Shown in pieces: positions 663 to 51,287 of a stretch of DNA of 64,000 bases (its first letter is position 1; every line of letters starts with the position of its first letter). A program made the translations under genes and the position numbers. Below the pieces are notes generated by a model. It was not told where the DNA came from. It searched no databases and was given only the letters and a program-made list of their open reading frames with translations. This DNA is from Deltaproteobacteria bacterium (GTDB lineage Bacteria > Desulfobacterota > Desulfomonilia > UBA1062): contig JAHDOV010000012.1 of NCBI GenBank assembly GCA_018434685.1, positions 1,590 through 65,589 on the forward strand, given 5' to 3'.

Positions 663-704
663 GTTCGATCTTTTTCATCGAACAGTGTAACTTTTTGCCT
701 CCAT

Positions 705-1202
705 ATGCGTTATAGTAAGACAGTGCATGACATAGAATCCATATTCGAAGCGAACAAAGACAGGCTGTTCTCGTACATCGTCCGTATGACCGGAGACGCA
801 GACGAAGCACACGATATTCTGCAGGAGAGCATTATGCGCTACATGGAGCACTACGGAGCGGAAAATAATTCCCGCGCCCTGCTGTTCACCATAGCCCGCA
901 ATGCCCTCATCGACCATACCCGCAGGCGGCGGGTGCATCTTGTCGAGCTTGACGATGACCACGAGGACCCCTGCACAGGCCAGGAACATGCCCTGCTCGT
1001 GAAGGACAGCTACCGGCAGGTGCTCTCCGGCCTTCAGGCACTGGCCGACGACGAGCGGGACATCCTGGCGATGGTGGTGAGCAGCGACCTGTCCTATCAG
1101 GAGATTGCCGGAGTCACGGGCATGAGTGTCGCCAATGTCAAGGTGAAGGTCCACAGGGCCCGTCTTCGGCTCAGGAACCTGTTAAAAGGAGAAGAACCAT
1201 GA
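705..1202 (+). CDS. RNA polymerase ECF-type sigma-70 factor
   Basis: The 165-aa ORF has region-2 and region-4 like segments (ARNALIDHTRRRR; SYQEIAGVTGMSVANVKVKVHRARLRL). Its stop overlaps the next gene (ATGA). Confidence 0.85.
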   Translation: MRYSKTVHDIESIFEANKDRLFSYIVRMTGDADEAHDILQESIMRYMEHYGAENNSRALLFTIARNALIDHTRRRRVHLVELDDDHEDPCTGQEHALLVKDSYRQVLSGLQALADDERDILAMVVSSDLSYQEIAGVTGMSVANVKVKVHRARLRLRNLLKGEEP

Positions 1203-1759
1203 ATGACATTATCATCAGCATGTTCATCGATGACGAACTCGGCCTTGATGACAAGATCGAGTTCGTCGAAAAGGTGCATGCACGTGCGGACTTCAAGGAC
1301 GAGACCGTCTCTCTGCTGAACCAGGAGAAGCTGCTGCGTACCGATCCCGTGGAGCACTTCTCTCCGGTGGCCATACCATCGCCCAGGAGATCCAGGAAGA
1401 TGCTCCTCTTCCCCGTGGGCATAGCGGCAGCGGCCCTGGCCGTGGCAGTCGTCATACTGACCTTCTCCCTCGTGCTCCAGCAGCAGATGAGCCCCACCCC
1501 CTACCGGTTCGTGATCTACCGGCCCGACGTCACCCAGGCTGAGATCACCGGAAGCTTTACCGACTGGGAGAGGCTCCCCATGAATAAGCTCGGCCAGAGC
1601 GGCTACTGGGAGATCGATCTCGATCTGCCCCGGGGCGAACACCGGTTCGTCTATATCCTGGGAGGAGATGAGCGCGTTGCAGACCCTACGGTCCCGGCCC
1701 GCGAGGCCGATGATTTCGGCGGGGTGAACTCAATACTCAACCTGGGAGACCGGATATGA
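1199..1759 (+). CDS. Anti-sigma factor candidate with a single TM helix and a periplasmic CBM48 / AMPK-beta-like glycogen-binding (E-set) domain
   Basis: It is translationally coupled to the ECF sigma gene and has a central hydrophobic helix. The C-terminal motif is GSFTDWERLPMNK...LDLPRGEHRFVYILGGDERVADP...FGGVNSIL. Confidence 0.6.
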   Translation: MNDIIISMFIDDELGLDDKIEFVEKVHARADFKDETVSLLNQEKLLRTDPVEHFSPVAIPSPRRSRKMLLFPVGIAAAALAVAVVILTFSLVLQQQMSPTPYRFVIYRPDVTQAEITGSFTDWERLPMNKLGQSGYWEIDLDLPRGEHRFVYILGGDERVADPTVPAREADDFGGVNSILNLGDRI

Positions 1760-2079
1760 AAAGACTGCTCAGTGTCCTGATACTGAGCTCTTTACTCGCC
1801 GGCTGCACGCAGCATTACTATCGCAACGACGATGGCCTCACGACGCTGTTCCTTGAGGCCCCCGATGCAACGTCCGTCTCTTTCGCCTCGTCCCTGGACG
1901 GCTACGTACTGCATCCGGCGCAGCGCCTGAGCAGGTCAACCTGGGCGGTCAGCGTTCGTTGCGATACGCAGTTCAGCTACTTTTATGTCATTGACGGCAG
2001 CGTCTACCTGCCTGACTGCCCCTACCGTGAGCACGACGATTTCGGCTCGGAAAACTGTGTCTTTATCCCCGGGATGTAA
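1756..2079 (+). CDS. Lipoprotein with a CBM48-like domain, paralogous to the anti-sigma sensor domain
   Basis: It has a lipobox signal (LLAGC) and the shared motif FYVIDGSVYLPDCPYREHDDFGSEN, and it overlaps the upstream gene's stop. Confidence 0.5.
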   Translation: MKRLLSVLILSSLLAGCTQHYYRNDDGLTTLFLEAPDATSVSFASSLDGYVLHPAQRLSRSTWAVSVRCDTQFSYFYVIDGSVYLPDCPYREHDDFGSENCVFIPGM

Positions 2080-2136
2080 CCTTCCCTTCCCTCACGCGTT
2101 ATAAAGACAAGAACACACCGTTAAAAGGAGACACAC

Positions 2137-3249
2137 ATGAAAAAGACAGCAATCATTGTTGGCATACTCCTGATGTGCGCCAGCGCCTCTTTTGCCGACG
2201 AGGTCGATCAGGACCTTCCCAACCAGACAGCAGAGCAGCTCAAGGCAAACACCCGGGAGATGATCCGTCTCGGCATCAGCACCGACGAGGCCGTCAAGAT
2301 GACAAGGGCCATGGTGGAGAACAGGTTCCAGGTGGAAAACGCCGTTCAGGCCCAGGAAGTCGTCATGAACGCCAAGAAGCAGGGACTGCCCGCAGGGCCC
2401 GTCATGAACAAGGCACACGAGGGCATTGCCAAGAACGTACAGGCTGGCTCTATTGTTGCAGCAATGGAGAAGACCAGAGAGCGCTATGCCTATGCTTATG
2501 AAAAGGCAAAGACCCTGGGCATCGACACCAGGGAGGTCGCGCCCACCGGTGATGTTATCGCAGAGAGCATGGCAGCGGGGCTGACACGAAGAGATGCGGA
2601 TGTCATCTGCGACAGGCTGCAGACCAGAGACCGCCTAAGGACCACAGACACGGATCAGACGCCGGCTCAGGACCGACAGAGAGACCGGGAGCAGATCCAC
2701 AAGGTTGCTCAGGAGAGCTTCATGACGGTTCGTGAGATGAACCGGCTCGGGGTTCCCTCTGATGTCGCCTCAGACACCGTCTGTCAGGCACTGGAAAACG
2801 GCTATCAGGCCCGGGACATGGAACAGTTGAGAAACACCTTCATGAACAGGGCACGGCAGGGAGACCCGGCACAGCTCGCGAAGACCTATGCACATGCCAT
2901 CAGGAACGGCGCCGGGGCCCAGGATCTGGACTCTCCGGGAAGATTGGGCAAGGGCTGGTCTGATGAGGCATCCGGATCCGGCATGTCCGGCGGACCGGGA
3001 CAGGGAACCGGCTCAGGTGCAGGCAGCGGTGGTCCGGGCAGTGGCGGCAGTGATTCCGGTGAGGGTGCCGGTGGTCCGGGCAGTGGCGGCAGTGATTCCG
3101 GTGAGGGTGCCGGTGGTCCGGGCAGCGGCGGCAGTGATTCCGGTGCAGGGACCGGCGGTTCGTCCGATAGCGGTCCCGGTTCTTCCGGCAGCGGCGCTGG
3201 CGGAGATCACGGCGACGGCGGCGGTTCGGGCAGTGGCGGCAAAAAATAA
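2137..3249 (+). CDS. Secreted protein with two internal ~40-aa helical repeats and a C-terminal Gly/Ser/Asp-rich low-complexity tail
   Basis: It starts with a signal peptide (MKKTAIIVGILLMCASASFA). The motifs REMIRLG...TDEA and REMNRLG...SDVA repeat, and the C-terminus is (GGPGSGGSDSGEGAG)n. Confidence 0.6.
   Translation: MKKTAIIVGILLMCASASFADEVDQDLPNQTAEQLKANTREMIRLGISTDEAVKMTRAMVENRFQVENAVQAQEVVMNAKKQGLPAGPVMNKAHEGIAKNVQAGSIVAAMEKTRERYAYAYEKAKTLGIDTREVAPTGDVIAESMAAGLTRRDADVICDRLQTRDRLRTTDTDQTPAQDRQRDREQIHKVAQESFMTVREMNRLGVPSDVASDTVCQALENGYQARDMEQLRNTFMNRARQGDPAQLAKTYAHAIRNGAGAQDLDSPGRLGKGWSDEASGSGMSGGPGQGTGSGAGSGGPGSGGSDSGEGAGGPGSGGSDSGEGAGGPGSGGSDSGAGTGGSSDSGPGSSGSGAGGDHGDGGGSGSGGKK
3028..3153 (+). 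repeat. Three tandem copies of a 42-nt unit encoding GGPGSGGSDSGEGA
   Basis: The unit ggtggtccgggcagtggcggcagtgattccggtgagggtgcc occurs three times in a row inside the CDS. Confidence 0.7.
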
Positions 3250-3285: not shown

Positions 3286-3314
3286 GGAGGGGCGCAAAGC
3301 CCCTCCCTTTTTTT
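3286..3314 (+). terminator. Rho-independent terminator after the Gly/Ser-repeat protein gene
   Basis: The hairpin ggaggggc-gcaaa-gcccctcc is followed by a T7 run. Confidence 0.6.
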
Positions 3315-3360
3315 ATCTCATTGTTTTATGAAGAACCGGACGTTCTCAACGGCTGCCCAC

Positions 3361-3401
3361 AAAAAAAGATATGCACCCCCACCTTTCAAGGGGTGCATAT
3401 C
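3361..3401 (-). terminator. Rho-independent terminator for the minus-strand HesB-like gene
   Basis: A perfect 12-bp inverted repeat, gatatgcacccc/ggggtgcatatc with a 9-nt loop, is followed on the minus strand by a T7 run. Confidence 0.55.
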
Positions 3402-3459
3402 CCGTTCTTCTCTTACACCTGCACACAGCAGGCGGATGCGTTGTTACCTGAGGTTCACC

Positions 3460-3765
3460 TCAGCAGGAACACCCGCCACCGGCGCTCGGGCATGTGCTTG
3501 CCGCCAAGCCTGTTGCAGTGACCATGAATCCGCTCGGACTGGCATCGATGTTTACCGTGCCAAGCTCCTTGAGCAGCGTCTTGTCCACTACAAAACGGAA
3601 CCCTTCAACCTCGAACACATTGTCGTTATCTCCCGGCTCATCCAGAGCCAGCATCAGCTGAAAGCCCCCTCAACCCGGTCTGCCGTAAACCCGTATGGGC
3701 GTTACATCCTTTCCACCAAAGTAGTTCTTGAATTCATCAACTGCGCTCTGTGTCAACTCAACCAT
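3460..3765 (-). CDS. HesB/IscA-like Fe-S assembly protein with an in-frame TGA (candidate selenocysteine) at the conserved first cysteine
   Basis: An ATG at 3765 follows an aaggagag RBS and opens MVELTQSAVDEFKNYFGGKDVTPIRVYGRPG. The next codon is TGA (3672..3670), and the frame continues GGFQLMLALDEPGDNDNVFEVEGFRFVVDKTLLKELGTVNIDASPSGF...GGGCSC. This aligns with IscA-type ...GGGCSGF..., with TGA at the Cys position. Confidence 0.5.
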
Positions 3766-4179
3766 GTAGCTCTCCTTTTGCTGTTCCGCGCAACGTCAAC
3801 CCACAACATCGGTCATGAAAATACGTTACCGGATAATTTATGTTTAATATAGGGTGGCGCTTTTCATTAATCCAGTATACCGGCAAATAAACTTTCGCAA
3901 AACCCCTTTTATGAAATCTTCGAGCGTACTGGGCATTCCCTGAAGATACCCGTCGATGTCCGCTATGCACACCGGGAGACACGAACGCCGTCGATTATCC
4001 AGGGGCTCCCTGCACGCAGACCCTTGAGAAATCACTGGACGCAATAAATGTCATGGACACCCTATGGAATAACCGGATTCCGTCATTAATATATAAAAAA
4101 GCCAGATACTGTGATGGGCTTTTTTCATGAAGTGTCTTTTCTGGTACGAAAACACTCGGGAGAGAAAGGAGGGTTGACT

Positions 4180-4464
4180 ATGGCTACATTCTTTCTGTTT
4201 GGAAAATATTCTGTTGAGGCATTGAAAGAACTCAGTTCCGACCGCACAAAGAAGGCCGAAGCGCTCATAGAGAAATTCGGAGGCAAGGTACATTCCATGT
4301 ATGCCCTGTTCGGGGAGAAAGACCTGGTGTTCATCATCGATTTCGCAACACCCCACGATGCCCTGAAGACCTCGATTGCCCTGACCAAGATGACCGGGAT
4401 ATCGTTTTCCACCTCGCCTGCAGTGACCGTGGCCGAGTTCGACAAGCTCATGCGTGACATATAG
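4180..4464 (+). CDS. GYD domain protein
   Basis: The translation MATFFLFGKYSVEALKELSSDRTKKAEALIEKFGGKVHSMYALFGEKDLVFIIDF follows a gagaaaggaggg RBS. Confidence 0.7.
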   Translation: MATFFLFGKYSVEALKELSSDRTKKAEALIEKFGGKVHSMYALFGEKDLVFIIDFATPHDALKTSIALTKMTGISFSTSPAVTVAEFDKLMRDI

Positions 4465-9983: not shown

Positions 9984-10781
9984 GTGTCTGATGATGTAGT
10001 CCTCATGGAAAAGAAGGGGCATGTTGCCACCATCATTCTCAACCGTCCGGAAAAACGAAACTCACTGAACCCGGAAATGCTATTGAAAATGGCGACCCTG
10101 TTTCAAGAACTTGCGCTCAGCGATGACATCCGCACCGTGGTGATCCGCGGACAGGGAGACAGGTCGTTTTCCTCCGGCTATGATCTCTCCGAGATCCCGA
10201 CCGATGTTCCGCCGGAACTCACAGAGGAACTCACAAGGAAAAACCCCCTGGAAATCGGGTTTGAGGCCCTCGAGCGCTATCCTTACCCGGTCATTGCCAT
10301 GATCGACGGCTATGCCTATGGCGCAGGCTGTGAACTGGCCATGACCTGCGATCTGCGGATAGCCTCCGATACCTCGAAAATGGGCATCCCCCCTTCCCGG
10401 CTGGGGCTCGTCTACCGCCCCGAAGGCATACAGAAATTCATCAACATCATGGGCGTGGCACATGCCAAAGAGGCGTTCTTCACCGGGAGGTTTTACGACA
10501 TCCACCAGGCCCGCGAGATGGGGATGGTCAATCATGTTGTCCCGAAGACCGACCTGCATGCCTTCACCTACACCCTGGCCGAAGAGATTGCCGACAACGC
10601 GCCGCTGGCAGTCAAGGGACATAAACGCATCTTCAACTGCCTTCACCATCACCAGGGGATCAGGCCCGAAGACCGGGAGGAGATCAAGAACATAATCCTC
10701 ACATCGCTGAACAGCGAAGACCTCAAGGAAGGGACCCTCGCCTTTCTCGGCAAGAGAAAGGCCCGGTTCAAGGGCAGGTAG
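9984..10781 (+). CDS. Enoyl-CoA hydratase / crotonase family protein
   Basis: A GTG start follows an aaggagg RBS. Crotonase-fold motifs are GYAYGAGCELAMTCDLRIAS. Confidence 0.8.
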   Translation: MSDDVVLMEKKGHVATIILNRPEKRNSLNPEMLLKMATLFQELALSDDIRTVVIRGQGDRSFSSGYDLSEIPTDVPPELTEELTRKNPLEIGFEALERYPYPVIAMIDGYAYGAGCELAMTCDLRIASDTSKMGIPPSRLGLVYRPEGIQKFINIMGVAHAKEAFFTGRFYDIHQAREMGMVNHVVPKTDLHAFTYTLAEEIADNAPLAVKGHKRIFNCLHHHQGIRPEDREEIKNIILTSLNSEDLKEGTLAFLGKRKARFKGR

Positions 10782-10790
10782 CTCGAAGAC

Positions 10791-11684
10791 ATGAAAGCAT
10801 CCAGCCACGAGATACCGCACCTGAGCGGCCTGCACTACCGGCAGGTCGATGTCTTCTCCCAGGGTCCGCTGACCGGCAACGGGCTTGCCGTGTTCTGGGA
10901 GAGCAGCGGCCTTTCTTCAGACCTCATGCACGGCCTCACCCGGGAGCTGCGCCAGTTCGAGTCGATCTTCCTGAGCGCGACCGGGAGGGACAATGCCTTT
11001 GGCGCGCGCATCTTCACGTATGAAGAAGAACTCGACTTTGCCGGGCACCCCATCCTTGGGGCGGCCGCCGTACTCCACGAGCACCATGGAACCGGCCCTG
11101 CAGCTCAGTGGACTTTCGTTTTGAACCGCAAGGATGTCGGGGTGGCCACTACCAGGATCGATGACGGCTACGAAGCGGTCATGGACCAGGGCCGCCCGGA
11201 GTTCGGCCCGCCCTTGAGCCCGGAGCATGCCCTGCCCTTTTTAGAGGCTCTCAATGTATCTCCCCGGCATCGCTCCCGTGACTGCCCGCTCCAGGTCGTC
11301 TCCACAGGGTTGCCGTACCTGATCGTGCCGGTCAGCGGCGGCCTGGAACACACCGGGGTCGTTCGTGCCGGGCTGCAATCCCTGCTGGCAGCGGTCGGTG
11401 CGAAATTCGCCTATGTGCTTGATGTCGATGCCCGGGAGGGGCGGACCTGGGACAACGAGGGCCGTGTGGAAGACATTGCCACGGGCAGTGCTGCAGGGCC
11501 TGCAGGGGCCTATTTATGCAGGCACGGCCGGGCGGTTTGCGCCGAAACCATCGTGCTGCACCAGGGTCGTTTCATGGGAAGGCCGAGCCGCATGGACGTA
11601 CGGGTTGCCGGCAATGCCTCTGAGGTGAACCGGGTTCACGTCAGCGGCCACGTGAACATGATCGCCACGGGCGTTTTCGATTGA
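10791..11684 (+). CDS. PhzF-family isomerase
   Basis: Family motifs are RQVDVFSQGPLTGNGLAVF and the overall PhzF layout. Confidence 0.8.
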   Translation: MKASSHEIPHLSGLHYRQVDVFSQGPLTGNGLAVFWESSGLSSDLMHGLTRELRQFESIFLSATGRDNAFGARIFTYEEELDFAGHPILGAAAVLHEHHGTGPAAQWTFVLNRKDVGVATTRIDDGYEAVMDQGRPEFGPPLSPEHALPFLEALNVSPRHRSRDCPLQVVSTGLPYLIVPVSGGLEHTGVVRAGLQSLLAAVGAKFAYVLDVDAREGRTWDNEGRVEDIATGSAAGPAGAYLCRHGRAVCAETIVLHQGRFMGRPSRMDVRVAGNASEVNRVHVSGHVNMIATGVFD

Positions 11685-21421: not shown

Positions 21422-22372
21422 ATGAGATACTACGCGGATGAAGTCAACCTCCATGCCAGGATATATGCCATGCGGAGCCGTCTCCTCATGCTCAGGGACT
21501 ACACCGCGATCGTCAGGGACAACAATGCCTTTTCCGAAACCATAACCGGCGCAGATGAATACGCCCGGGCCAGGGAAACTGTCTTCACCGAACAGATCCA
21601 GGCCGTGATCCGCCTCGCCGAGGCAACACAGACCTATGCCCCGCTCTTTCTCGCCTTCCTCCGTCAGTACGAGGCCAACAACCTCAAGCTCCTCCTGGCC
21701 AGGGCATTCGGCAGGCAGTGCCTGGAACAGTGGTACGATATCGGTCACTACGCCACCCTCGACAGGGGGCTGCTCAAGAAAGAACCCGCCCTGGAGGAGA
21801 TCAGGTCCATGCTGGCCGGCACATACCTGGACGGCCTTCTCGACGATACTGCGAGCTACGAACGCCTCGAGATGCGTATCGACATCCGTGCGGCCAAAAA
21901 CCTGCATGCCTCTTCGGCTCCCTTCCTGCCCAGGTCACGCAACGACTTCCAGGAGATCATGCTCAGGCGGGTCGCGGTCCTCGCCGTGATCTGGCAGCGG
22001 AGGCTCAAGGAGAACTACCACTGGGATGACGAGCAGATACAGTCTCACCTTGAACGTCTCCCTGAGCTCTTCGACGGCTCCCCTGCGCCACAGGTGAAGA
22101 TCGTTCAGGAGGCAATGAACCGGCGTCTTGAACTGGAGAGGAAGAGCGGCGGACCATCGCCGGGCGCAGTGGATGTCGAGTACTATCTCGAGCAGTATTT
22201 CTACCGGTGGGTCTGTTCCATATTCCACAAGGATTTTCACTCGGTATACTGCGTGGTCGCCTATCTGTGGCTGCTGTTCTACCAGATAAAGAACCTGCTG
22301 CGCATCATCGACGGCAGGCACCTGGGCCTGTCGCCTGAAGCGATATTCGAAAGGATCGTATGTGAAGTGTGA
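21422..22372 (+). CDS. atpC: V/A-type ATPase subunit C (d)
   Basis: It is 316 aa and sits in the operon between the H-like and I subunits. Confidence 0.65.
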   Translation: MRYYADEVNLHARIYAMRSRLLMLRDYTAIVRDNNAFSETITGADEYARARETVFTEQIQAVIRLAEATQTYAPLFLAFLRQYEANNLKLLLARAFGRQCLEQWYDIGHYATLDRGLLKKEPALEEIRSMLAGTYLDGLLDDTASYERLEMRIDIRAAKNLHASSAPFLPRSRNDFQEIMLRRVAVLAVIWQRRLKENYHWDDEQIQSHLERLPELFDGSPAPQVKIVQEAMNRRLELERKSGGPSPGAVDVEYYLEQYFYRWVCSIFHKDFHSVYCVVAYLWLLFYQIKNLLRIIDGRHLGLSPEAIFERIVCEV

Positions 22373-22380
22373 GGCCTGCC

Positions 22381-24291
22381 ATGTTTGTGAAGTCGGATAT
22401 CAGGAGAGTCTCTGTCGTTGTTGAGAAGATCTACTACCGGGAGGTCTGCATCGCACTGGGAAGACAAGGGTTCATCCAGCTCTCCGGTTCACCGGACAGT
22501 ACGCCTGATACCTCCACGGTCACCGGGCTCAGGGACGAGGAGACACGGATCAGGGGACTCCTCTCAGGAATCGAATACATCCTCCATGCCTTCGGCATCG
22601 AACCCGGCAGCGCTGCCATACCCGAGAGGGTGCGCGACACCCCCCAGGACGAGGCCTTCGTCTCGGGGACAAAAAACACCATCGACCGTGCAGAGCGTAT
22701 CCGCTCAAAGATTCAGGAGGAATCGGCGGCCATCCGGGAGCATATATCCTGCCTCGAGATCGTGCATGAGATGGGCATCGATCCCGGTTCGATCAGGACG
22801 GCACGCCTGGTAAAGATGATCTTCGGGACCGTGGAAAACCTCGACTGGCAGGTACCGGCTCACGAGGGCTTCATGGTGGCCGGGGCGGGCAGGCATGTCA
22901 TAGGCGCGGCCCTTCCTCCGGATTTCGAAGCGATGACGAGGTTTCTCAAGGCATACGGCTTCACCGACAGGTCGGGGGACCTGGTCGAGGCATCCCCTGA
23001 AACCCTTGCACACCGTCTGGACACGCTCCGGCACCGGCAAGAGATCCTCGAGTCCTGCCTGGACCGCCTGAAGGATGACGCGGGGCAGGTCCTGCAAGAG
23101 CTGCACGGCTTCTACAGCGGCTACGAAGAGATCCTCCATGCCCTGAGGCTGTCGGCATTCTCATCCCGGGCCATGTTCCTGTCCGGATGGATAGACCTGG
23201 CCGACAAGCAGCGGCTCCTGAGCATCCTCAGGGAAATCTGCGCCGACAGGTTCATCGCCGTCGTCTCCGAGAAGAGAGAACCCGAGGCCCCGGTCCGCCT
23301 CATGAACCGGAAGCTGCTGAGGCCCTTCGAGCTCCTTGTGAAGACCATGGGCATGCCGGCCAACAGCGAGATAGACCCTACCCCGCTCACGGCACTCACC
23401 TTTGTTCTCATGTTCGGCCTCATGTTCGGCGACCTCGGCCAGGGGCTCGTCCTGGCCCTGATCGGCCTCGTGCTCGAGCGGATCGCGCACAACAGGGGTG
23501 CGTCATCCCAGGGCCTCGGACAGATCGGGAAGATCCTGATCGCCTGCGGCATCTCGGCAGCCCTGTGCGGCCTTCTCTACGGCAGCGTCTTCTCGAGCGA
23601 GCAGATCATACCTGCCCTCTGGTTCCACCCCATCGAGCACATCATGAGCCTGTTTGCCGCAACCATCCTGATCGGGGCACTGTTCATCGCCATCGGTCTT
23701 TGCGTCAACATCATCAACAGCCTCATGAACTCGCATTATACCGAGGCCTTCTTTGAAAAGAGGGGGCTCGTCGTACTCGTGCTCTATGCGGCAATCGTGC
23801 TCGGTGTCATACGGTATACTAGAACAGGAGAAGGACCTGCGCCGTGGGAGGCAGGCGTATTCATTGCCGTGCCCCTGCTCCTCTTTTCCTTGAGGGGTGT
23901 GCTCGGGCCGGCCCTGTTTTCGGAACCCGCACCGCAGAGCATAACCGAATACTGTATCGAGACGTGCGTGGAGATCCTGGAGACAGGGTTGAGCATGCTT
24001 TCAAACACCATCTCGTTCATCAGGGTGGGGGCCTTTGCGCTGTCTCACGCAGGATTGAGCATCGTGACCTACACCCTGGCCGGCATCGCCGACCCAGCGA
24101 TGCGCTCTCCGGGCGCCATCGCCATCATTATTGGCGGCAACATCTTCATTATCGGCTTCGAGGGCCTTGTCTGCTCGATCCAGTCCATGAGGCTCGAGTA
24201 CTACGAGTTCTTCAGCAAGTTCTTCAGGGGAGACGGGGTTGCCTTTACCCCTTTCATACTCAAGGGAAAAAGCGTTGGAGGTGCTCTATGA
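22381..24291 (+). CDS. atpI: V/A-type ATPase subunit I (a)
   Basis: A hydrophilic N-terminal half is followed by a multi-TM C-terminal half. A GTG at 22369, overlapping the upstream stop, is an alternative start. Confidence 0.8.
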   Translation: MFVKSDIRRVSVVVEKIYYREVCIALGRQGFIQLSGSPDSTPDTSTVTGLRDEETRIRGLLSGIEYILHAFGIEPGSAAIPERVRDTPQDEAFVSGTKNTIDRAERIRSKIQEESAAIREHISCLEIVHEMGIDPGSIRTARLVKMIFGTVENLDWQVPAHEGFMVAGAGRHVIGAALPPDFEAMTRFLKAYGFTDRSGDLVEASPETLAHRLDTLRHRQEILESCLDRLKDDAGQVLQELHGFYSGYEEILHALRLSAFSSRAMFLSGWIDLADKQRLLSILREICADRFIAVVSEKREPEAPVRLMNRKLLRPFELLVKTMGMPANSEIDPTPLTALTFVLMFGLMFGDLGQGLVLALIGLVLERIAHNRGASSQGLGQIGKILIACGISAALCGLLYGSVFSSEQIIPALWFHPIEHIMSLFAATILIGALFIAIGLCVNIINSLMNSHYTEAFFEKRGLVVLVLYAAIVLGVIRYTRTGEGPAPWEAGVFIAVPLLLFSLRGVLGPALFSEPAPQSITEYCIETCVEILETGLSMLSNTISFIRVGAFALSHAGLSIVTYTLAGIADPAMRSPGAIAIIIGGNIFIIGFEGLVCSIQSMRLEYYEFFSKFFRGDGVAFTPFILKGKSVGGAL

Positions 24292-24638
24292 CCAGGGATA
24301 ATCAGTCTTGGGCTCTTGCGGGTGTTCTCCTGCTCGCAGCAGTGATGTGCCTTTTTCCGGACGTGCTGCCTGCGGCGGCTCAGCAGGAGTCCCTCGGGAC
24401 AACCGCGAACAATCCGGGCAACAACTGGCTCGATATGGGATACATCGCTGCGGCCCTGGCCGTGGGACTAGCCTGTATCGCCAGTGCCTTCGCCGTTGCC
24501 CGTATCGGTTCGGCAGGCATTGGCGCCATGAGCGAGAAGCCGGAGCTCACGGGACGGGTCCTCATCTTCCTCGGCCTGGCCGAAGGGATCGCCATCTACG
24601 GCCTGATCATCGCGATCATGATCCTCAACAAGCTGTAG
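24288..24638 (+). CDS. atpK: V/A-type ATPase proteolipid subunit K (c)
   Basis: It has hydrophobic helices with the ion-binding Glu in GLAEGIAIYGL and overlaps the atpI stop (ATGA). Confidence 0.7.
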   Translation: MTRDNQSWALAGVLLLAAVMCLFPDVLPAAAQQESLGTTANNPGNNWLDMGYIAAALAVGLACIASAFAVARIGSAGIGAMSEKPELTGRVLIFLGLAEGIAIYGLIIAIMILNKL

Positions 24639-24640
24639 GC

Positions 24641-24946
24641 ATGAAGAAGATCTACATCATAGGCGACCTGCATACGGTGAGCGCCTGGCGTCTCGCCGGG
24701 GTGGAGGGCGTGGTCTCGGGCAAAAACAGGGCTCACTCCGACCTCGAAGAGACCATCGGCAAGGAGGATGCAGGTATCGTGATCATCACCAACGGGCTCG
24801 CCGAAGATCTCCGGGCGAGGATAACCGAGATAAACACGGGCAGCTCGAGCCCGGTAGTCATCGAGATACCGGGCATCGACGATCCGCACGGGTTTGGCAG
24901 ATCGGCCGTGGGCTACATAGCAGAGGCCCTCGGCATCGCCCTGTGA
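24641..24946 (+). CDS. atpF: V/A-type ATPase subunit F
   Basis: The translation begins MKKIYIIGDLHTVSAWRLAGVEGV. Confidence 0.8.
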   Translation: MKKIYIIGDLHTVSAWRLAGVEGVVSGKNRAHSDLEETIGKEDAGIVIITNGLAEDLRARITEINTGSSSPVVIEIPGIDDPHGFGRSAVGYIAEALGIAL

Positions 24947-24961
24947 GGAGAGGGACCGGTC

Positions 24962-25564
24962 ATGGAAACAACGCCACTGGAAACCTCCATCAGGGAAGAG
25001 TCCGAGCGCACGATACGGGCCATCAGGGAACACGAGGCCGCCGAGATCAGGCAACTCGACGAGGCCTGCACGCTCGAGATCGAAGGTTACCGGGGCAGAA
25101 CCGGGGACGAAATACAGGCGAGGATCGATCAGGAACTGAAAAGAATCGCCAGCAGGGGCATCCTCGAGCGCAGGAAGCTCATGCTGCGCACCATCGAGGA
25201 GTTCATCACCCGCACGGTGGAAAAGGCAGTGGAGGGCATGAGGTCGGATCCGCTCTACAAAGAGTTTCTCCTGCAGAGCATATGTGCTGCCACACTCGAG
25301 ATCCAGTCCGGGGCGGAGGTGCATCTCAAGGAGCAGGACCGGATCTTTGATGACGAGATCATGGCTGCCCTTAAGGACGCAGGCGTCCACAGGGATATCG
25401 TCATCAGGGATGACAGCACGATACAATGGGGCGGCTGCCTCGTCAGAGACGAAGCAGGGGGACGTATCTTCAACGGCACCATCGAGAGAATCTACTACCG
25501 AAAATCAGCGATGATACGCCGGGAGGTCCTGAGAATCCTCAAAGACAAGGGGTTCACTCTCTAG
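24962..25564 (+). CDS. atpE: V/A-type ATPase subunit E
   Basis: A 200-aa helical, charged protein in the operon's E position. Confidence 0.75.
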   Translation: METTPLETSIREESERTIRAIREHEAAEIRQLDEACTLEIEGYRGRTGDEIQARIDQELKRIASRGILERRKLMLRTIEEFITRTVEKAVEGMRSDPLYKEFLLQSICAATLEIQSGAEVHLKEQDRIFDDEIMAALKDAGVHRDIVIRDDSTIQWGGCLVRDEAGGRIFNGTIERIYYRKSAMIRREVLRILKDKGFTL

Positions 25565-25575
25565 AGAACAGGGGG

Positions 25576-27354
25576 ATGCAGGTGGAAGACATGGTGACGG
25601 GAAAGGTGATCTCTGTCAACGGCCCGATCGTGAAGGCGTCGGGGCTGGCGAGAATAAAGATGTTCGACATCGCCGAGGTTGGCCCCCACAGGCTCATCGG
25701 GGAGGTCATCCGCCTTGCCGGGGGCGTGACCGTCATCCAGGTGTACGAGGACAACACCGGCCTGAAGCCGGGCGACGAGGTGGTTTCCTCGTGCAGGCCG
25801 CTGTCGGTCCTGCTGGGTCCGGGGCTCATCGCGAACATATACGACGGCATACAGCGCCCGCTCGTGGGTATCTCCGAGGTATGCGGCAGCTATATAGAAA
25901 AGGGGATCAAGCTGCCCGCGCTCGACATGGAGAAGCGCTGGGCATTCAGTCCGCTCGTAACGGCCGGGGCCGCACTGAGAGGGGGTTGCGTGCTGGGAGA
26001 GATCCGGGAGAGTCCCCTGGTCGTGCACCGGGTCCTCCTGCCTCCCGGGGTATCCGGCACGCTCACGGGCATTGCCGCCGCCGGAGAGTACACCATTGAC
26101 GAAGAGATCTACACCCTCGATACCGCTACGGGCACCTACACGGGGAAACTCGCCGGGTACTGGCCGGTGAGGAGCCCGCGGCCGTTCAGGCTCAAGAAGA
26201 AACCCTTCATCCCGCTCATGACCGGTCAGCGGGTCATCGACACGTTTTTCCCCATAGCCAGGGGCGGTACCGCAGCAATACCCGGGGGGTTCGGAACGGG
26301 CAAGACCATGACCCAGCATGCCCTGGCCAAGTGGTGCAACGCGGACATCATCGTGTACATCGGCTGCGGCGAACGGGGCAACGAGATGACCGATGTCCTC
26401 ACTGAATTCCCGAATCTCATCGATGAACGAAACGGAAGGCCGCTCATCGAACGGACGGTCATGATCGCGAACACCTCGAACATGCCGGTGCCTGCCAGGG
26501 AGGTAAGCATCTACACCGGGGTGACCATCGCTGAATTCTATCGCGACATGGGTTACAGCGTCGCGGTGATGGCCGACTCCACCTCGCGGTGGGCCGAGGC
26601 CCTCAGGGAGCTCTCCAGCAGGCTCGGAGACATGCCTGCGGAGGAGGGATTCCCACCCTACCTGGCAACCCGCCTCGCCGAGTTCTACGAGCGGGCCGGC
26701 CTGGTGGAAACACTCTCGGGCCATGACGGCGACATCACCATCATCGGTGCGGTCTCCCCCCCGGGCGGCGACTTCTCGGAGCCGGTCACCCAGCACACGT
26801 CACGATTCGTGAGGTGCTTCTGGGCGCTCGACAAGATCCTGGCCGATGCCCGGCACTATCCCTCGATCAGCTGGACCGACAGCTACACCGAATACCTCCA
26901 CGACATCGAGGCCTGGTGGAGAACCCTCGACAGCCAGTGGCTTTCACTCAGGAACGAGGTGATGAACATCCTGCTTGACGACCACAGGCTCCAGCAGCTG
27001 GTAAAGCTCGTGGGCACCGATGCCCTGCCGCAGACCCAGCAGTTTGTCCTCTTTGCAGCCGAGATGATCAAGAACGCCTTCCTCCAGCAGAATTCCTTCG
27101 ATCCCATTGACAAATACTGCAGCCCGGAGAAGCAGCTCAAGCTCCTCAAGACGTTCCTGACCCTCTACCGAAAGGGTTCGCAGCTCGTGCATGCAGGCGT
27201 TTCTCTAAAGGAGATCAAGGCCCTCGATGTGATGTCCGAACTGGTGAGGCTCAAATCCGAGGTCCCGAACCAGGACACCGCCAGGATCGATGAGTATGGA
27301 AAGAGGCTTGCGACAGAGCTCGATTCTCTCAAAGAGCTCTTGACAGGGGTATAG
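25576..27354 (+). CDS. atpA: V/A-type ATPase catalytic subunit A
   Basis: It carries the Walker A loop GGFGTGKT and overall A-subunit architecture. Confidence 0.9.
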
Positions 27355-27356
27355 CC

Positions 27357-28760
27357 ATGGCAGTCGAGATAGAGTACACATGCCTTTCCGAGATCTCCGG
27401 ACCGCTCATCTTCGTCAGGGGAGTCAGGGGTGTCGGGTTCGGGGAGATCGTGGAGATCCGCGACGGATCATCCGCCGTACGGACAGGGCAGACGCTCGAG
27501 GTCGACGAAGACAGCGCCGTGGTGCAGGTCTTCGAAGGAACGAGCGGGCTCTCGGTGGAGGGCATGCGGGTGACCTTCGTGGGAAGGCCGCTCGAGATCC
27601 CAGTGGACCGCGACATGCTCGGACGGGTCTTCGACGGCCTGGGAAGGCCCATCGATGGCGCCCCCCAGGTGATCACGGACAACCTGAAGGACATCAACGG
27701 CCTGCCGGTGAATCCCTGGAGCAGGGAATACCCGAGGGACTTCATACAGACCGGGATTTCGGCCATCGACGGCATGAACACCCTCATCCGCGGGCAGAAG
27801 CTCCCCATATTCTCGGCCAGCGGCATGCCGCACAACCTGATCGCCGCACAGATCGCCAGGCAGGCCATGATCCTGAGCGCAAAGGAAGAGTTCACCGTCA
27901 TCTTTGCAGCCATGGGGGTGAAGTTCGACATGGCCCGGTTTTTCATCGACTCGCTCGAGGAATCGGGCGTGCTCACGCACTCGGCCATATTCCTGAGCCT
28001 GGCAGATGCCCCGTCCATCGAGCGGCTCATCACGCCACGCGTGGCGCTCACGCTCGCCGAGCACCTCGCCTTTGACGAGGGCATGCATGTGCTCGTGATC
28101 CTCACCGACATGACGAACTACTGCGAGTCGCTCCGGGAGCTCTCCAGCTCGAGAGGGGAGATCCCTTCCCGGAAGGGCTACCCCGGCTACCTCTACAGCG
28201 ACCTCGCTTCCATCTACGAGCGGGCAGGCAGATTGAAGGGTCACCGCGGCTCTATCACCCAGATGCCCATACTCACCATGCCGAGCGACGACATCTCACA
28301 CCCGGTCCCGGACCTCACCGGCTACATAACCGAGGGACAGATTGTGCTGGAGAGAGAGCTCTTCAACAAGGGCATCTACCCTCCCATTGCCGGCCTGCCC
28401 TCGCTGTCGCGGCTCATGAAGGACGGCATCGGCGAGGGGCATACCCGCAAAGACCATGCCGAGGTAGCGGCCCAGCTCTTTGCCTCCTATGCCAAGGTCA
28501 AACGCATCCGCGCCCTCGAGGCCATCGTGGGAGAAGAGGAGCTTTCCTCTCTCGACAGGGTATACCTGAAGTTCGGAACAGCGTTCGAGGAGGAGTTCCT
28601 GAGCCAGGGGCCCGAGGAGAACCGGTCCATCGAGCAGACGCTCGACCTTGGATGGCGCATGCTCTCCCTGCTTCCCCAGGAAGAGCTCTATCGCATCTGT
28701 GCAGAAGACCTGCACAAGTTCTACATTCCTTCCAAGGAGCGGGGAGAATGCCAAAGATAG
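27357..28760 (+). CDS. atpB: V/A-type ATPase subunit B
   Basis: A 467-aa non-catalytic nucleotide-binding subunit. Confidence 0.9.
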
Positions 28761-33985: not shown

Positions 33986-35230
33986 TCAGGGCAAACGCGA
34001 TGTGTCTCTCTTGAAGATGTATGTGATAAGCCAGTCTGCCACGATCTGGAGTCTGTTCTTGTACCTGGGGAGCAACGCGAGCTTGAAGGCCTTCCAGATC
34101 ACCCAAGCAATAAAGCCCTGGAACTGGTGTCCATAGACCTCACACACCCCTGACATGAATCCCAGTGATGCCATATCCCCACGATAATGGAAGTGAAACG
34201 GGATGAGGGGCTTCTTTTGCATCTGTTTCGCTATATTATCAGCGACGGATCGTGCTTCCTGAACCGCAACCGAGGCCGTGGGCGGCAAAGGATTACTGTT
34301 CTGTACAAAGTGCGCAGCATCTCCGATCACGTAGACGTCGGGGTAACCTGGTATCTGAAGATAATTGTCTACCATGATACGGTTGATCGAATCCCTCTCG
34401 ATATCCTGTTTGGTATTCAGATCAAGTGCGCGTATACCACCGGTCCAGATGAGAATTCCTTTGGGCAGACGGATATCATTATTAAGACCTATCGTGTTTT
34501 CATCTACCCAATCAAGCCGGGTGTTAAATAAGAGCTCAACCCCTAATGCCTTGAGTCTTTCCATTGCGACCTGAGACAGGTATGCGGGAAAGGATGTCAG
34601 GATCTTACCGGCTGTCTCAATCATAGTGATCCGGACTTCCGGACGGGCTATCTCAGGGTAGTCCTTTTCAAGTATGATGTTGATGAATTGTGCTATTTCA
34701 GCAATCAGCTCTACCCCTGTACAACCGCCGCCCACAACATTGATCGTCAAGAGAGCCCTCCTTCTGTCTTGATTTTTTTCGAGGGCACCCTTTTCCAAGT
34801 GCTCGATGATCCTGTTTCTTATTGTGCTTCCATCACCGATGGTCTTTAAAGAAAGTGAATTTTCCTTGAGGCCGGGGATGGAATAAAAATTGGATTCACT
34901 CCCCTGGGCGAGGATGAGGTTATCGAAAGAAAACCGTCCCGATGTGGTTTCAAGCACCCTGGCCTCGAGATCAACGGCAGTCACCTCCTCACAACGTACA
35001 TGTATCTCGCCTGCATTGATAACTTTTCGGAGAGGAACTACCACATGCCTGGCATTAACGGTACCGGTTGCCATTTCATGGAGGACCGGCGTGTAGAGGA
35101 GAAAATTGTTCTTGTCGAAAAGGGTGATCTCGATCGTGCCTCCCAACCTTCTCCTCAGGGATGACACGGTGCACAGACCTGCAAATCCTCCTCCAAGTAT
35201 TCCGACACTTCTCTTCCCATTCACGTTCAT
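33986..35230 (-). CDS. NAD(P)/FAD-dependent oxidoreductase, type II NADH dehydrogenase (NDH-2) family
   Basis: Two Rossmann GxGxxG motifs (ILGGGFAG; VVGGGCTGVE) and the NDH-2 layout. The start was chosen at MNVNGK after a ggag RBS. Confidence 0.8.
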   Translation of the reverse strand: MNVNGKRSVGILGGGFAGLCTVSSLRRRLGGTIEITLFDKNNFLLYTPVLHEMATGTVNARHVVVPLRKVINAGEIHVRCEEVTAVDLEARVLETTSGRFSFDNLILAQGSESNFYSIPGLKENSLSLKTIGDGSTIRNRIIEHLEKGALEKNQDRRRALLTINVVGGGCTGVELIAEIAQFINIILEKDYPEIARPEVRITMIETAGKILTSFPAYLSQVAMERLKALGVELLFNTRLDWVDENTIGLNNDIRLPKGILIWTGGIRALDLNTKQDIERDSINRIMVDNYLQIPGYPDVYVIGDAAHFVQNSNPLPPTASVAVQEARSVADNIAKQMQKKPLIPFHFHYRGDMASLGFMSGVCEVYGHQFQGFIAWVIWKAFKLALLPRYKNRLQIVADWLITYIFKRDTSRLP

Positions 35231-35433
35231 GACTCCATACCGGTGTACCGGCCCGGATATTACCTTCGTGATCACCGATGGCCGGATCATGCACGCAACC
35301 CACCTACATAGCTCTGCATGACAGCCCAGATGGATCATCCCTTCATCACTATTCAGTTGGCCTGTGTCTGTTCCAGGATATCCACTAATAAGATACTATG
35401 GAGCTTACGAAGAACTTCTCCGCAGCAGCGCAT

Positions 35434-38231: not shown

Positions 38232-38715
38232 TTGTATCCGTATCGTCGTCTGCCTGGCAGTGCTGGCGCTGGCCGCAGGCTGCGCCACCACCCCGAAGCA
38301 GACCGTTCCCTATCCTGCGTATTCCGACAGCGACTGCCAGGCAGCCGTCAAGGCAGGGGCCCTGGCAATGACCGACTTCAGCCGCGAGCACACGCTCGCC
38401 CAGATGGAGAACCGGCAAGCGGATTATACGAAAGCGAGGGAGAGCCTCGCCAACACCCTTGCCGTGCTCGAGCCCGGCAAGGTGAGCCCAGCAAAGCCCA
38501 AATACGAACGGATCGCCGTGTGCTTCGAGACGGCGTTGTCAGGGATCGACCATGTCGTCGCCGGCCAGAGGGCGGGAGACCAGGGAGAGGAAGCGCTGGG
38601 CTGGGAGATATTCGACCAGTCTGCAGGCGAGCTTCTGCTCGTGCTCGAGCCGCATGCAAACACTGCTGCACAAGGCCCGGTGCAATCCGACAGCCGGCGC
38701 AGGCCTCAGCCGTAA
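38206..38715 (+). CDS. Hypothetical lipoprotein
   Basis: It has a lipobox (LALAAGC) and overlaps the end of the coiled-coil gene. Confidence 0.5.
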   Translation: MQQYFAGNNCIRIVVCLAVLALAAGCATTPKQTVPYPAYSDSDCQAAVKAGALAMTDFSREHTLAQMENRQADYTKARESLANTLAVLEPGKVSPAKPKYERIAVCFETALSGIDHVVAGQRAGDQGEEALGWEIFDQSAGELLLVLEPHANTAAQGPVQSDSRRRPQP

Positions 38716-38746
38716 ATGCTCAACGAGATCTCAAGGGGAGGATTAC

Positions 38747-40009
38747 ATGGGAAGAACCTGTACATTGGGCGTTTGGACAAAAGTATTTGCCGTGGTGTTT
38801 TTCTCGCTCGGCCTGTCTCTGGCTGCCCGTGCCGACATGGGCAGAGTCTATGTCAGCCTTGATCCGGTCACGGTGAGCGAGGACTCGCAGAAGGCCATCA
38901 TCCTGCACAATCTCGCTGAAGAGGTCCTGATCCTGGGCACCGACCTCAGGGCCTCGAAGAAGACCGGGGTCATCAGGTTCATCCCCTTCCCTGCCGAGCC
39001 TGCTGTCGACCTGGCGCCCGAGGGCGCCTTCGAGAAGGCAGCGGCCATGATCAAGAAATACGGATTGAAATATCAGTATCTTCACTATACGAAAGGCGGC
39101 CCTGCCGATGCGGAAACGCAGGGAGTCGAGCTTCGCCTGAACAAGAAGCTAGGTGCCCATGACCTGACGATCATCAAGGTCAACGACGTCTCGCAGTTCA
39201 GGCAGTGGGTGAACGAATACTTCAAGGCGAGGGGGCTTCCCGCGAAAGAGCAGTATCCCGAGGAAGAGGCCGTGGTGGATGACTATGTGAAACGGGGGCT
39301 CATCTACTTTGTCCTCGATTATGTCGAGGTCTCCGACGAGCCGCGCTTCATCGAGCCCGTCGCATACCGGTTCACAAGCAAAGAGCTGTACTATCCGCTG
39401 AAAACATCGAACACCTTCGGCGGTCAGGGCAGCATCGAGCTGATCATCATCGCGCCCACCACCTTGTGTTTTGCCGGCAACGAGCCCCTCGACCCCTACA
39501 GCGGAGCGCTCTACAAGGAAGAGCACCCTCAAGCGCAGAGGCCCTACGGCCAGAGGCCGCTGTGCCTGAACATCCCCGTCATAGCGAGCACCTCGGCGCT
39601 TCTCGTAAAGAAAGATAAGGACCTGGACGGGATTTATCCCGGTGGAGAGGATTTCTTCAAAGACCAGAAGGCATTCATCCAGGTGGTGAGCTATACGGGC
39701 AACTACTTCTTCAATGACGATATCTTCGTCGATGTCTCCACAGGCATGCCGGCCGAGGCAGGGGTGTATGAAGAGGAAAAGGATGACCGCTATGGCGAGG
39801 TATTTACTTCTCTCGCCGACCCCGCAAAAAAAAGATGCTCTCTGAAGCCGGACCCGGGGCCGTGCAAGGCCCTGTTCGAACGGTATTACTACGACCCTGT
39901 CAGCAAGACCTGCAAGGCATTCTTCTGGGGCGGCTGTGGCGGGGTCGTGCCCTTCGAGACAGAAGAGGAATGCAAGAAATGCCTTGAAGACGGAGGAACA
40001 AGCAAATGA
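38747..40009 (+). CDS. Secreted protein with a C-terminal Kunitz/BPTI serine-protease-inhibitor domain
   Basis: An ATG follows an aggggagg RBS and a signal peptide follows. The last ~55 aa, CSLKPDPGPCKALFERYYYDPVSKTCKAFFWGGCGGVVPFETEEECKKC, match the Kunitz six-Cys spacing and the GPC...RYYY...C..F.YGGC...EEC..C signature. Confidence 0.7.
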   Translation: MGRTCTLGVWTKVFAVVFFSLGLSLAARADMGRVYVSLDPVTVSEDSQKAIILHNLAEEVLILGTDLRASKKTGVIRFIPFPAEPAVDLAPEGAFEKAAAMIKKYGLKYQYLHYTKGGPADAETQGVELRLNKKLGAHDLTIIKVNDVSQFRQWVNEYFKARGLPAKEQYPEEEAVVDDYVKRGLIYFVLDYVEVSDEPRFIEPVAYRFTSKELYYPLKTSNTFGGQGSIELIIIAPTTLCFAGNEPLDPYSGALYKEEHPQAQRPYGQRPLCLNIPVIASTSALLVKKDKDLDGIYPGGEDFFKDQKAFIQVVSYTGNYFFNDDIFVDVSTGMPAEAGVYEEEKDDRYGEVFTSLADPAKKRCSLKPDPGPCKALFERYYYDPVSKTCKAFFWGGCGGVVPFETEEECKKCLEDGGTSK

Positions 40010-46133: not shown

Positions 46134-46607
46134 ATGAGGTTATCGATCAATCTTATTGATGATGAGGTGGAAAAAGCAAAAATCGGTTATAAGACTGCTA
46201 CAAGCATGATTAAAATACTGGGTCAAGAAATTTACAGTAGGTTTAATGCAATGCTTATGGCAAACAGCATCATTATAGCAGTATATGGGTTTATTTTTTC
46301 AGAAAAAACCAACTTGCCAGACTTTTTTAAAATATTGTTACCTATCTTTGGAATCGTACTATGCTTTTTATGGTTTGTGTTTATTAACAATGGGATTCAC
46401 CGACACAGACAATATAGGAAAGAAGCTGAAAGATTAGAAGAAACATATTTCAATTCCACCTTTCACTTGTTTCGGATCAATTATGCAAACGATCCATGTC
46501 TTCTGAAGTGTTTCAGATTCAGACGTTTATCGATATTTGTGATAGATATTTTCGTGCTTTTGCATTTATCTGTACTTCTCTATAGTTGTCATAAACTTCT
46601 ACTTTAA
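46134..46607 (+). CDS. Cassette ORF: hypothetical membrane protein (157 aa)
   Basis: A low-GC ORF followed by an attC-like site. Confidence 0.5.
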   Translation: MRLSINLIDDEVEKAKIGYKTATSMIKILGQEIYSRFNAMLMANSIIIAVYGFIFSEKTNLPDFFKILLPIFGIVLCFLWFVFINNGIHRHRQYRKEAERLEETYFNSTFHLFRINYANDPCLLKCFRFRRLSIFVIDIFVLLHLSVLLYSCHKLLL

Positions 46608-46611
46608 AGAG

Positions 46612-46672
46612 CTTATAACAAGCCACTTCAGCCGACGGCCTACGGCCGCGGCTGACCGGCACGTTATGCGTT
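46612..46672 (+). repeat. attC-like recombination site
   Basis: The sequence TATAACaagccacttcagccgacggcctacggccgcggctgaccggcacGTTATgc has complementary ends and internal imperfect inverted repeats. Confidence 0.55.
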
Positions 46673-46680
46673 AATGGAGT

Positions 46681-47256
46681 ATGAATAATATGCAAAAGAA
46701 TATACTGAGCATTCTTTTCATTTTTGTTTTGTTATTAGTGATCGCAGTCTCAGTAATTCAAAATGATTCCTTATCAGTTTCTGATGCTATTTACGCCCTC
46801 ACCGCATTGATAATTCTTTGGTATTCATACGAGACGGCAATAATGCGTAACGAGATGATTAAACAGAATAGAATGTTAATGAGGCCGGTCTTAAATATAA
46901 AATTGGATAATAATAATGTTTTTTATAATAACGATGGTTCGGGACCTGCTCTCAATATTAAAGTTACTGACTTCAAGCCGACTATTAAAACTTCCACAGA
47001 TAATACTTATTACGAAATACAACCAGTCTCATATATTCCTCAGGGTGGTAGTGATAAAATCATCATTCATAGTGGTAATTCTGAAACCGGGGCAAAAGGT
47101 ACTGTTCCAGAAACTGACATGTTTTTTGGAGTTGGGAAGCAAGTTCAAATTACTATCGTATATGAGGATATGGAAGGCACTGAATACGAAACCAAGATCA
47201 CAACTAATTCAGGTAACGTTAATAGTGTTTCATTCAAAAGGTTAAAAAGCGCATAA
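46681..47256 (+). CDS. Cassette ORF: hypothetical membrane-anchored protein (191 aa)
   Basis: A low-GC ORF bounded by attC-like sites. Confidence 0.5.
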   Translation: MNNMQKNILSILFIFVLLLVIAVSVIQNDSLSVSDAIYALTALIILWYSYETAIMRNEMIKQNRMLMRPVLNIKLDNNNVFYNNDGSGPALNIKVTDFKPTIKTSTDNTYYEIQPVSYIPQGGSDKIIIHSGNSETGAKGTVPETDMFFGVGKQVQITIVYEDMEGTEYETKITTNSGNVNSVSFKRLKSA

Positions 47257-47310
47257 CCAGGTCATCCACCGGACGGCTTATAGCCGCCGGTGATGCCCAC
47301 GTTATGAAGA
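47252..47310 (+). repeat. attC-like recombination site
   Basis: The sequence cATAACcaggtcatccaccggacggcttatagccgccggtgatgcccacGTTATga has a caccggacggc/gccgccggtg stem with unpaired bases. Confidence 0.55.
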
Positions 47311-47343
47311 CAATTATCTCAGCTGTACTTTTGAAAGTGATAA

Positions 47344-48201: not shown

Positions 48202-48204
48202 ATA

Positions 48205-48345: not shown

Positions 48346-48346
48346 T

Positions 48347-49078: not shown

Positions 49079-49099
49079 TTTACAAGATACACAATTGGA

Positions 49100-51283: not shown

Positions 51284-51287
51284 GAAA

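Follow-up and report, generated by a model that had tools for sequence, protein, structure and literature searches.

HesB-like proteins have been listed among the prokaryotic selenoprotein families since the mid-2000s (about 2005; PMC1088965, and the Zhang and Gladyshev surveys, PMC1794560), and the family described by TIGR01911 carries the motif UxGP (PMC13188914, Table 1). Selenium incorporation into a HesB-like member was found by 75Se labelling in Methanococcus maripaludis, according to work cited in PMC11097638. A disruption mutant of the HesB-like gene of M. maripaludis fixed nitrogen normally (PMC11097638). The bacterial SECIS element, which marks a UGA codon for selenocysteine (Sec), is a stem-loop within the coding sequence just 3' of the UGA, with a small apical loop that contains G (PMC1088965, PMC9312934).

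The locus described here lies on the minus strand of a 64-kb stretch of DNA, referred to as the window. An ATG at 3765 opens a frame of 101 codons (3765..3460) with an in-frame TGA at codon 32 (3672..3670). Its translation reads MVELTQSAVDEFKNYFGGKDVTPIRVYGRPG (31 sense codons) up to the internal TGA, and GGFQLMLALDEPGDNDNVFEVEGFRFVVDKTLLKELGTVNIDASPSGFMVTATGLAASTCPSAGGGCSC (69 sense codons) from there to the final stop, TGA 3462..3460; the C-terminal end is ...TCPSAGGGCSC. The initial annotation had proposed a HesB/IscA-like selenoprotein gene starting at an ATG with a good ribosome-binding site, and had noted that HesB-like selenoproteins were already reported. Both statements are correct: the Shine-Dalgarno sequence AGGAG (3772..3776) lies 6 nt 5' of the ATG, and such proteins are described in PMC1794560 and PMC13188914. 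The complete coding sequence (3460..3765, minus strand; 100 standard codons and one Sec codon, before the TGA stop) is very probably an intact, free-standing gene for a 101-residue selenoprotein of the HesB/IscA fold, with Sec at UGA-32.

The gene is a monocistronic, free-standing unit. The sequence around the Shine-Dalgarno element, AAAAGGAGA, is kept in L001, L023, L103 and L104, and the ribosome-binding region of the leader as a whole (GCGGAACA-AAAAGGAGA) is conserved. Further upstream, positional conservation points to a possible promoter, TGGATT-17 nt-TATATT (3846..3874), where ACTGGAWW-N-CCCTAnATA is kept in position in L001, L023 and L104; this promoter was not called by the consensus scan, and its -35 hexamer has 3/6 matches. 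Downstream, an intrinsic terminator (3359..3403) with a 15-bp stem followed by a T-run is located about 57 nt past the stop, at a terminator-like site (3403..3366) with its T tract, and its stem (ATGCACCCC/GGGGTGCAT) is kept in L001 and L023. The 5' leader also holds a short upstream ORF on the minus strand (3796..3816), encoding MTDVVG and ending in TGA. Its start, ATGAC(C/T)GATGTTGTG, is common to the window, L001 and the contig of the database protein P0001, and is not present in L023 or L104; this ORF could be a leader peptide or chance.

On its 3' side, the selenoprotein gene faces a convergent plus-strand operon (705..3249) that encodes an ECF sigma factor and unknown proteins; BamE and a transglycosylase are encoded further along on the 5' side. 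The neighbours differ among the orthologous loci, with the exception of a divergent gene for a GYD-domain protein (4180..4464, plus strand, ORF open from 4111; PF08734, 51.6 bits). It stands head to head with the selenoprotein gene here, in L001/L020/L021 and in L104. As a neighbour it is conserved only inside this subclade: a tblastn search with the GYD protein matched L001, L020, L021 and L104 alone, and in L104 the annotation calls it as a GYD gene. Over the GYD region (4162..4463), nucleotide identity was 83% to L001 and 76% to L104, compared with 73% to L001 for the selenoprotein gene, and conservation with L001 was far above anything else in the flanks. The conserved neighbourhood was rejected as a clue to function, since the one gene in common is that for GYD, a domain which has no known function.

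Automated gene calls miss the 5' part of the gene, as had been anticipated from the ORF track. The mechanical ORF list contains only 3460..3654 (64 aa), and the sole exact database protein is the corresponding 64-aa fragment P0002 (NCBI record). The one 'full-length' protein in the databases, P0001, reads W at each of the two TGAs, which suggests a code-4 gene call and hence another TGA form. In L104, the annotation gives a 31-aa ORF directly followed by a 64-aa ORF. Gene callers end the frame at UGA-32 and begin again at Met38, yielding the 64-aa fragment. That the databases hold this fragment alone is probably because the clade scores under the cutoff of the relevant family model, NF038090 (79 vs 85 bits).

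Fold, ligand positions and conservation of UGA-32

With Cys substituted for UGA, the protein aligned end to end with the NCBIfam model NF038090 (IscA_HesB_Se; 1-101 of 101, 79.2 bits, E = 2.3e-22). Neither this score nor that of the sister sequence L001 (77.2 bits) reaches the cutoff of 85 bits, which other Sec clades do pass (121 bits for the L003 type, 109 for the L041 type and 114 for the Sec paralogue of L007). TIGR01911 (HesB_rel_seleno) gave 29.1 bits, below its cutoff of 66.35. Pfam PF01521 (Fe-S_biosyn), queried with C for U, matched over profile positions 3-90 of 110 with 25.0 bits (E = 2.3e-5; gathering threshold 26.3), and every equivalog cutoff lies above the score of this protein. 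On the NF038090 scores, we treat the clade of the window as a divergent sister clade to NF038090 and, by the NCBI criterion, as a near miss and not a member.

The best matches among solved structures (phmmer against PDB) were the IscA-like proteins 1NWB (Aquifex) and 2APN (Haemophilus) and E. coli IscA (1R94/1S98). Together with the end-to-end alignment to NF038090, they bear out the likeness to A-type Fe-S carriers that the initial annotation had pointed out. It had also placed the TGA at the first ligand cysteine. Indeed, column alignment puts U32 (3670..3672, minus strand) at the first cluster-ligand position of these carriers, opposite the Cys of GGCSGFQ in 1NWB, 2APN and 1R94, and C99 and C101 (C99-S-C101) aligned with the terminal CGC of 1NWB. 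The three-ligand pattern C-x(n)-C-x-C is thus present as U32, C99 and C101, the first being Sec and not Cys. The same positions are occupied in E. coli IscA by its ligands Cys35, Cys99 and Cys101. As shown by alignment, the predicted Sec32, together with Cys99 and Cys101, would stand at the three Fe-S ligating positions of IscA, SufA and ErpA. The Sec site itself reads U-G-G-F here and UAGP, UGGP or USGP in other clades; the UxGP motif of the TIGR01911 family was not found at this site. A structure model of P0001, with W at the Sec site, had a mean pLDDT of 35 and was discarded.

Scans of genome and metagenome collections yielded 99 loci, which were translated in register. An alignment with Sec and Cys homologues had been proposed in the initial annotation; in it, 14 further distinct sequences of several lineages have TGA at the identical column, far beyond what chance would give. 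These are the close orthologues L001 and L023 (~70% identity to the window), MAGs of Thermodesulfobacteriota/Desulfobacteraceae (L003, L005), Desulfonauticus (L008, L041, L042), Geobacteraceae (L009), a Bacteriovoracaceae MAG (L006), a Bacillota MAG (L011), and Sec paralogues in Desulfovibrionaceae, Halodesulfovibrio and gut metagenome contigs (L002, L007, L024, L038). Paralogues and homologues with TGC or TGT (Cys) at this column, in contexts such as GGCSGPRL and GGCSGFQY, were found in L002, L004, L007, L024-L040 and L043 onwards. No Cys orthologue was found within the subclade of the window, among its roughly 8 known sequences. At four loci, in Desulfovibrionaceae-type genomes that include human-gut contigs, a Cys form and a Sec paralogue stand in tandem, with about 500 bp between them (L002, 9465..9815 and 10001..10360; L007, 10001..10324 and 10537..10860; L024, 179..505 and 682..981; L038, 904..1230 and 1442..1762). 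Such tandem paralogues are possibly a selenium-dependent isoform switch.

Coding constraint was estimated as dN/dS by the Nei-Gojobori method among the window, L001 and L023. Codons 1-31 gave 0.18-0.29 and codons 33-101 gave 0.17-0.21, and the frame 3765..3460 contains no other lesions. With dN/dS near 0.2 before and after the TGA, the gene is not a pseudogene, and the decay that would have overturned the initial annotation was looked for without success (0.17-0.29 overall). Moreover, TGA is the ordinary stop in 20 of the 31 Pfam-supported genes of the window, indicating site-specific recoding and no code reassignment. The substitution of Sec for Cys, as first proposed, therefore gains support from 14 further TGA sequences, from the Cys homologues and from equal constraint on both halves of the gene.

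SECIS hairpin and decoding of UGA-32

A SECIS-like structure, which the initial annotation had asked for, was found in the form of a conserved hairpin with covariation, CUGGCUC-UGGAU-GAGCCGG (3633..3651, minus strand). Its stem counts 7 bp in this gene, against 6 bp in the consensus, and its 5-nt loop contains GG; the stem begins 18 nt and the loop 25 nt after UGA-32. The position 3' of the UGA and the small G-containing loop UGGAU agree with the bacterial SECIS signature. RNAalifold predicted this hairpin unprompted. Across the Sec forms, 91.4% of cells were paired, and neither the paired fraction nor the covariation score was reached by any of 500 shuffles (0/500). Compensatory changes occurred from GC to UA in 5 sequences and from GC to AU in 1. 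The fold z-score of the local RNA (-1.19) was unremarkable, and Rfam gave no match, either for the whole window at the gathering threshold or for 3300..4200 at E <= 1.

Because the hairpin coincides with codons of the conserved peptide LALDE, part of its conservation is driven by the protein. Ten Cys-form genes encoding an identical LALDE served as a protein-matched control. In the Sec forms, the codons GCU-CUG-GAU-GAG are invariant save for one GAC; the Cys forms use GCC/GCG/GCU, CUU/UUG/CUG and GAG/GAA, and always GAC. The difference between Sec and Cys forms was significant for Asp (Fisher p = 3e-6), Ala (3e-4) and Glu (1e-3), the p values being uncorrected for phylogeny. Within the four Sec/Cys paralogue pairs, whose members share a genome, the SECIS codons are kept by the Sec copy alone, and since the pairs show the same codon contrast, genome composition is ruled out as its explanation. 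When the hairpin was imposed on the Cys forms, 58.6% of cells were paired, the same as in shuffles, and folding energies were -1 to -7 kcal/mol for Cys forms versus -8 to -11 kcal/mol for Sec forms.

The hairpin named originally, UCAGC-UGAU-GCUGG, starting 8 nt after the UGA, is present here (3661..3648) and in the closest orthologues, but it is not the SECIS element. Over the 15 Sec forms, 56% of its cells (alignment columns 12-25) were paired, which equals shuffles, and it overlaps the conserved hairpin. The location of the SECIS element thus had to be revised: the supported hairpin (3651..3633) lies 11 nt downstream of the one named.

From the anatomy of the site and the established bacterial mechanism, we infer that SelB-GTP with Sec-tRNA(Sec) would be held by the hairpin 3651..3633 when the ribosome reaches UGA-32. 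Selenocysteine would then be put in at this codon instead of termination, and the second UGA (3462..3460), which has no such hairpin, would end translation. For the protein itself, there is about an even chance that it behaves like an A-type carrier, with transient binding of Fe or Fe-S at a Se/S/S site, or takes part in a selenenyl-sulfide redox or chalcogen relay. Sec, being more nucleophilic and having a lower pKa, would speed ligand exchange.

A Pfam search of about 60 ORFs revealed no selA, selB or selD in the 64-kb window, and a tRNA scan of the window returned no tRNA and hence no tRNA-Sec (selC). The machinery is also absent from the 3.9 kb beyond the window (L100, a 12-kb Logan contig reaching the ribosomal-protein/rpoA cluster). 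As this amounts to about 2% of a genome, it speaks neither for nor against Sec decoding. Relatives of the selenoprotein gene (L001, labelled Thermodesulfobacteriota) and of a cytochrome gene described below (homologues in Syntrophales) point to Thermodesulfobacteriota/Syntrophales as the source. Large selenoproteomes that include HesB-like proteins are found in this group, for example in Syntrophus aciditrophicus and Syntrophobacter fumaroxidans (PMC1794560). Because two genes with a TGA and a hairpin occur within 64 kb, a Sec-decoding organism is the economical reading.

Several other explanations of the interrupted frame were weighed. A nonsense mutation at the Cys codon of an IscA/HesB gene would leave a decaying pseudogene, and such an event requires one substitution from TGC or TGT; the fragmentary database record and the family HMM scores just under their cutoffs fit this explanation as well. 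However, the same TGA stands in the 14 other distinct sequences of several lineages, and the frame has no other lesions and a low dN/dS before and after the TGA. The ribosome-binding site, leader and terminator are conserved as well, and the hairpin that is specific to Sec forms is kept at synonymous sites. On these comparative sequence data, a pseudogene is effectively refuted already, and we assign it next to no probability. The same negligible probability applies to a chance arrangement of two small genes in one frame, the first for a peptide of 31 aa and the second for a protein of 64 aa. Locus L104 is annotated in this way, but the Cys-form homologues are continuous single proteins over both parts, and the HMM and PDB alignments cross the junction as one domain. 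Taken together, the conserved TGA, the Cys homologues, dN/dS and the ordinary use of TGA as a stop exclude both the pseudogene and the pair of mini-genes.

Somewhat more room, though still little, must be given to an intact gene that is not decoded with Sec in this organism. The machinery might have been lost recently and the gene be silent, a near-cognate tRNA might read through the UGA (inserting Trp, Cys or Arg), or translation might re-initiate at Met38 to give 64 aa. The machinery was not found within the window, a G-rich GAGGGGG is located about 12 nt before the internal ATG, and gene callers pick this internal start. Against this, the same window holds a second gene with a conserved TGA and hairpin, and the SECIS codons are intact and equal to those of other Sec forms. 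Met38 is not conserved in other clades, which have Val, Ala, Leu or Arg there, and in the 64-aa fragment the fold would have neither its N-terminal strands nor its first ligand. Furthermore, loss of a selenoprotein normally takes the form of Sec-to-Cys conversion or gene loss (PMC1794560). We consider this explanation to be very unlikely, and retain a selenoprotein decoded with Sec at UGA-32.

A second probable selenoprotein gene and other features of the window

The plus-strand ORF 60082..61326 encodes an 11-haem c-type cytochrome that is probably a second selenoprotein. A signal peptide and a first CxxCH motif are followed by TGA at codon 56 (60247..60249) and then by ten in-frame CxxCH motifs. 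The NCBI call (P0007) starts after the TGA. Read-through is required, because a c-type cytochrome without a signal peptide could not mature. The TGA and its flanks, GGEGEG-U-AGAPPPV(R), are kept in the isolate Syntrophus gentianae (L101) and in Syntrophorhabdaceae (L105-L108). A hairpin is present at about 60261..60278, and in each relative a hairpin of 6-8 bp, with a G-containing loop, begins about 11 nt past the UGA. Most of approximately 690 homologues seem to lack their N-terminal part in the annotation. Where full-length homologues have a sense codon at the TGA column, it is one for Arg (CGA), Ser (UCA), Ala or Tyr and in no case for Cys, an atypical pattern for a Sec site.

The cytochrome matches none of the NCBIfam models listed for cytochrome selenoproteins. 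Assignment to ExtKL/MccSep (NF040886) was rejected: there was no HMM hit, the protein has 11 haems and not 5, and its Sec is N-terminal and not C-terminal (PMC13510729). The gene may represent an uncatalogued selenoprotein family and may be more novel than the HesB-like gene.

Directly after the cytochrome gene follows a gene for a two-domain rhodanese (61338..62264, plus strand), and the pair is kept in S. gentianae (rhodanese gene at L101, 11094..12017) and Syntrophorhabdaceae (rhodanese gene at L105, 4050..4946). A weak similarity of the rhodanese to ExtH, from the selenite/tellurite cluster of Geobacter (75 bits against a cutoff of 200), suggests sulfur or selenium chemistry.

Two other TGA codons were considered and rejected as Sec sites. 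The ORF 55216..55680 (plus strand) encodes a protein with a C-GCAxxG-C-C pattern that matches TIGR01909 with 47.9 bits (cutoff 47.4), a family with selenoprotein members. As a third selenoprotein, with Sec at TGA 55678, it was discarded: the HMM match stops well short of the TGA and none of the conserved Cys residues is missing, which makes this copy a Cys form whose TGA is a genuine stop. The NDH-2 gene (33986..35338) is followed by 70 in-frame codons past its TGA, but the NDH2_C match reaches the end of the ORF and, by inspection only, the downstream sequence is unlike a continuation.

Among the remaining genes of the window, the region 38552..42348 (plus strand) encodes a protein of 485 aa whose C-terminal part is a Kunitz/BPTI domain, an unusual feature for bacteria, and directly after it a 780-aa protein that consists almost entirely of ankyrin repeats and has a signal-like N-terminus. 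The region of about 46600..54800 may be a mobile or foreign island; it contains an integrase fragment (49317..49808, minus strand) amid some eight ORFs without Pfam match. A V/A-type ATPase operon (21422..28760, plus strand) encodes subunits C/AC39, I, A and B, in a bacterium whose relatives place it in Thermodesulfobacteriota.

Comparison with known families

The gene 3765..3460 is a real selenoprotein gene and a divergent addition to the already known HesB-like kind. Its omission from databases points to a systematic annotation error, since the subclade falls 6-8 bits under the NF038090 cutoff that triggers selenoprotein annotation, and every database copy found of the subclade is a 64-aa stump or a code-4 artefact. 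A lower NF038090 cutoff or an added model for the subclade would recover these genes. Sec and Cys paralogues with the same LALDE side by side in one genome constitute an unusually clean natural control for SECIS function, and a clade with the complete IscA triad, with Sec first, is a good candidate for testing Se as an Fe-S ligand in vivo. A bolder reading would make the subclade obligately Sec-containing A-type carriers, with Se directly ligating Fe or Fe-S, that form a two-gene module with the divergent, more strongly conserved GYD protein and are functionally distinct from IscA and the catalogued HesB-like proteins; we regard this as unlikely.

The closest relatives are the members of NF038090. 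They share with the window protein the column of Sec and, in the clades that pass the model, the SECIS hairpin encoded by LALDE, and their taxonomic range is likewise centred on Thermodesulfobacteriota and Desulfovibrionaceae. The window clade differs in its more IscA-like motif GRPG-U-GGFQL, which has F where the others have P, and in the invariant C-terminus TCPSAGGGCSC that ends the protein. It also has the divergent GYD gene, and no Cys orthologue was found for it.

The HesB-like family of TIGR01911 has the same small HesB/IscA fold with Sec in place of the first conserved Cys, has Cys homologues, and occurs, as here, mainly in anaerobic Deltaproteobacteria and in Clostridia. The window protein, however, has UGGF and not UxGP and scores 29.1 against 66.35 bits. 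In TIGR01911-like sequences (L009, L011) the C-terminal end is a single or double Cys, whereas the window protein keeps the full C-x-C of true A-type carriers. With IscA, SufA and ErpA (PF01521), the protein shares the fold family, according to the HMM, and the occupation of all three ligand positions. Unlike in these carriers, the first ligand is predicted to be Sec instead of Cys, and the gene is found outside any isc, suf or nif operon, among unrelated genes.
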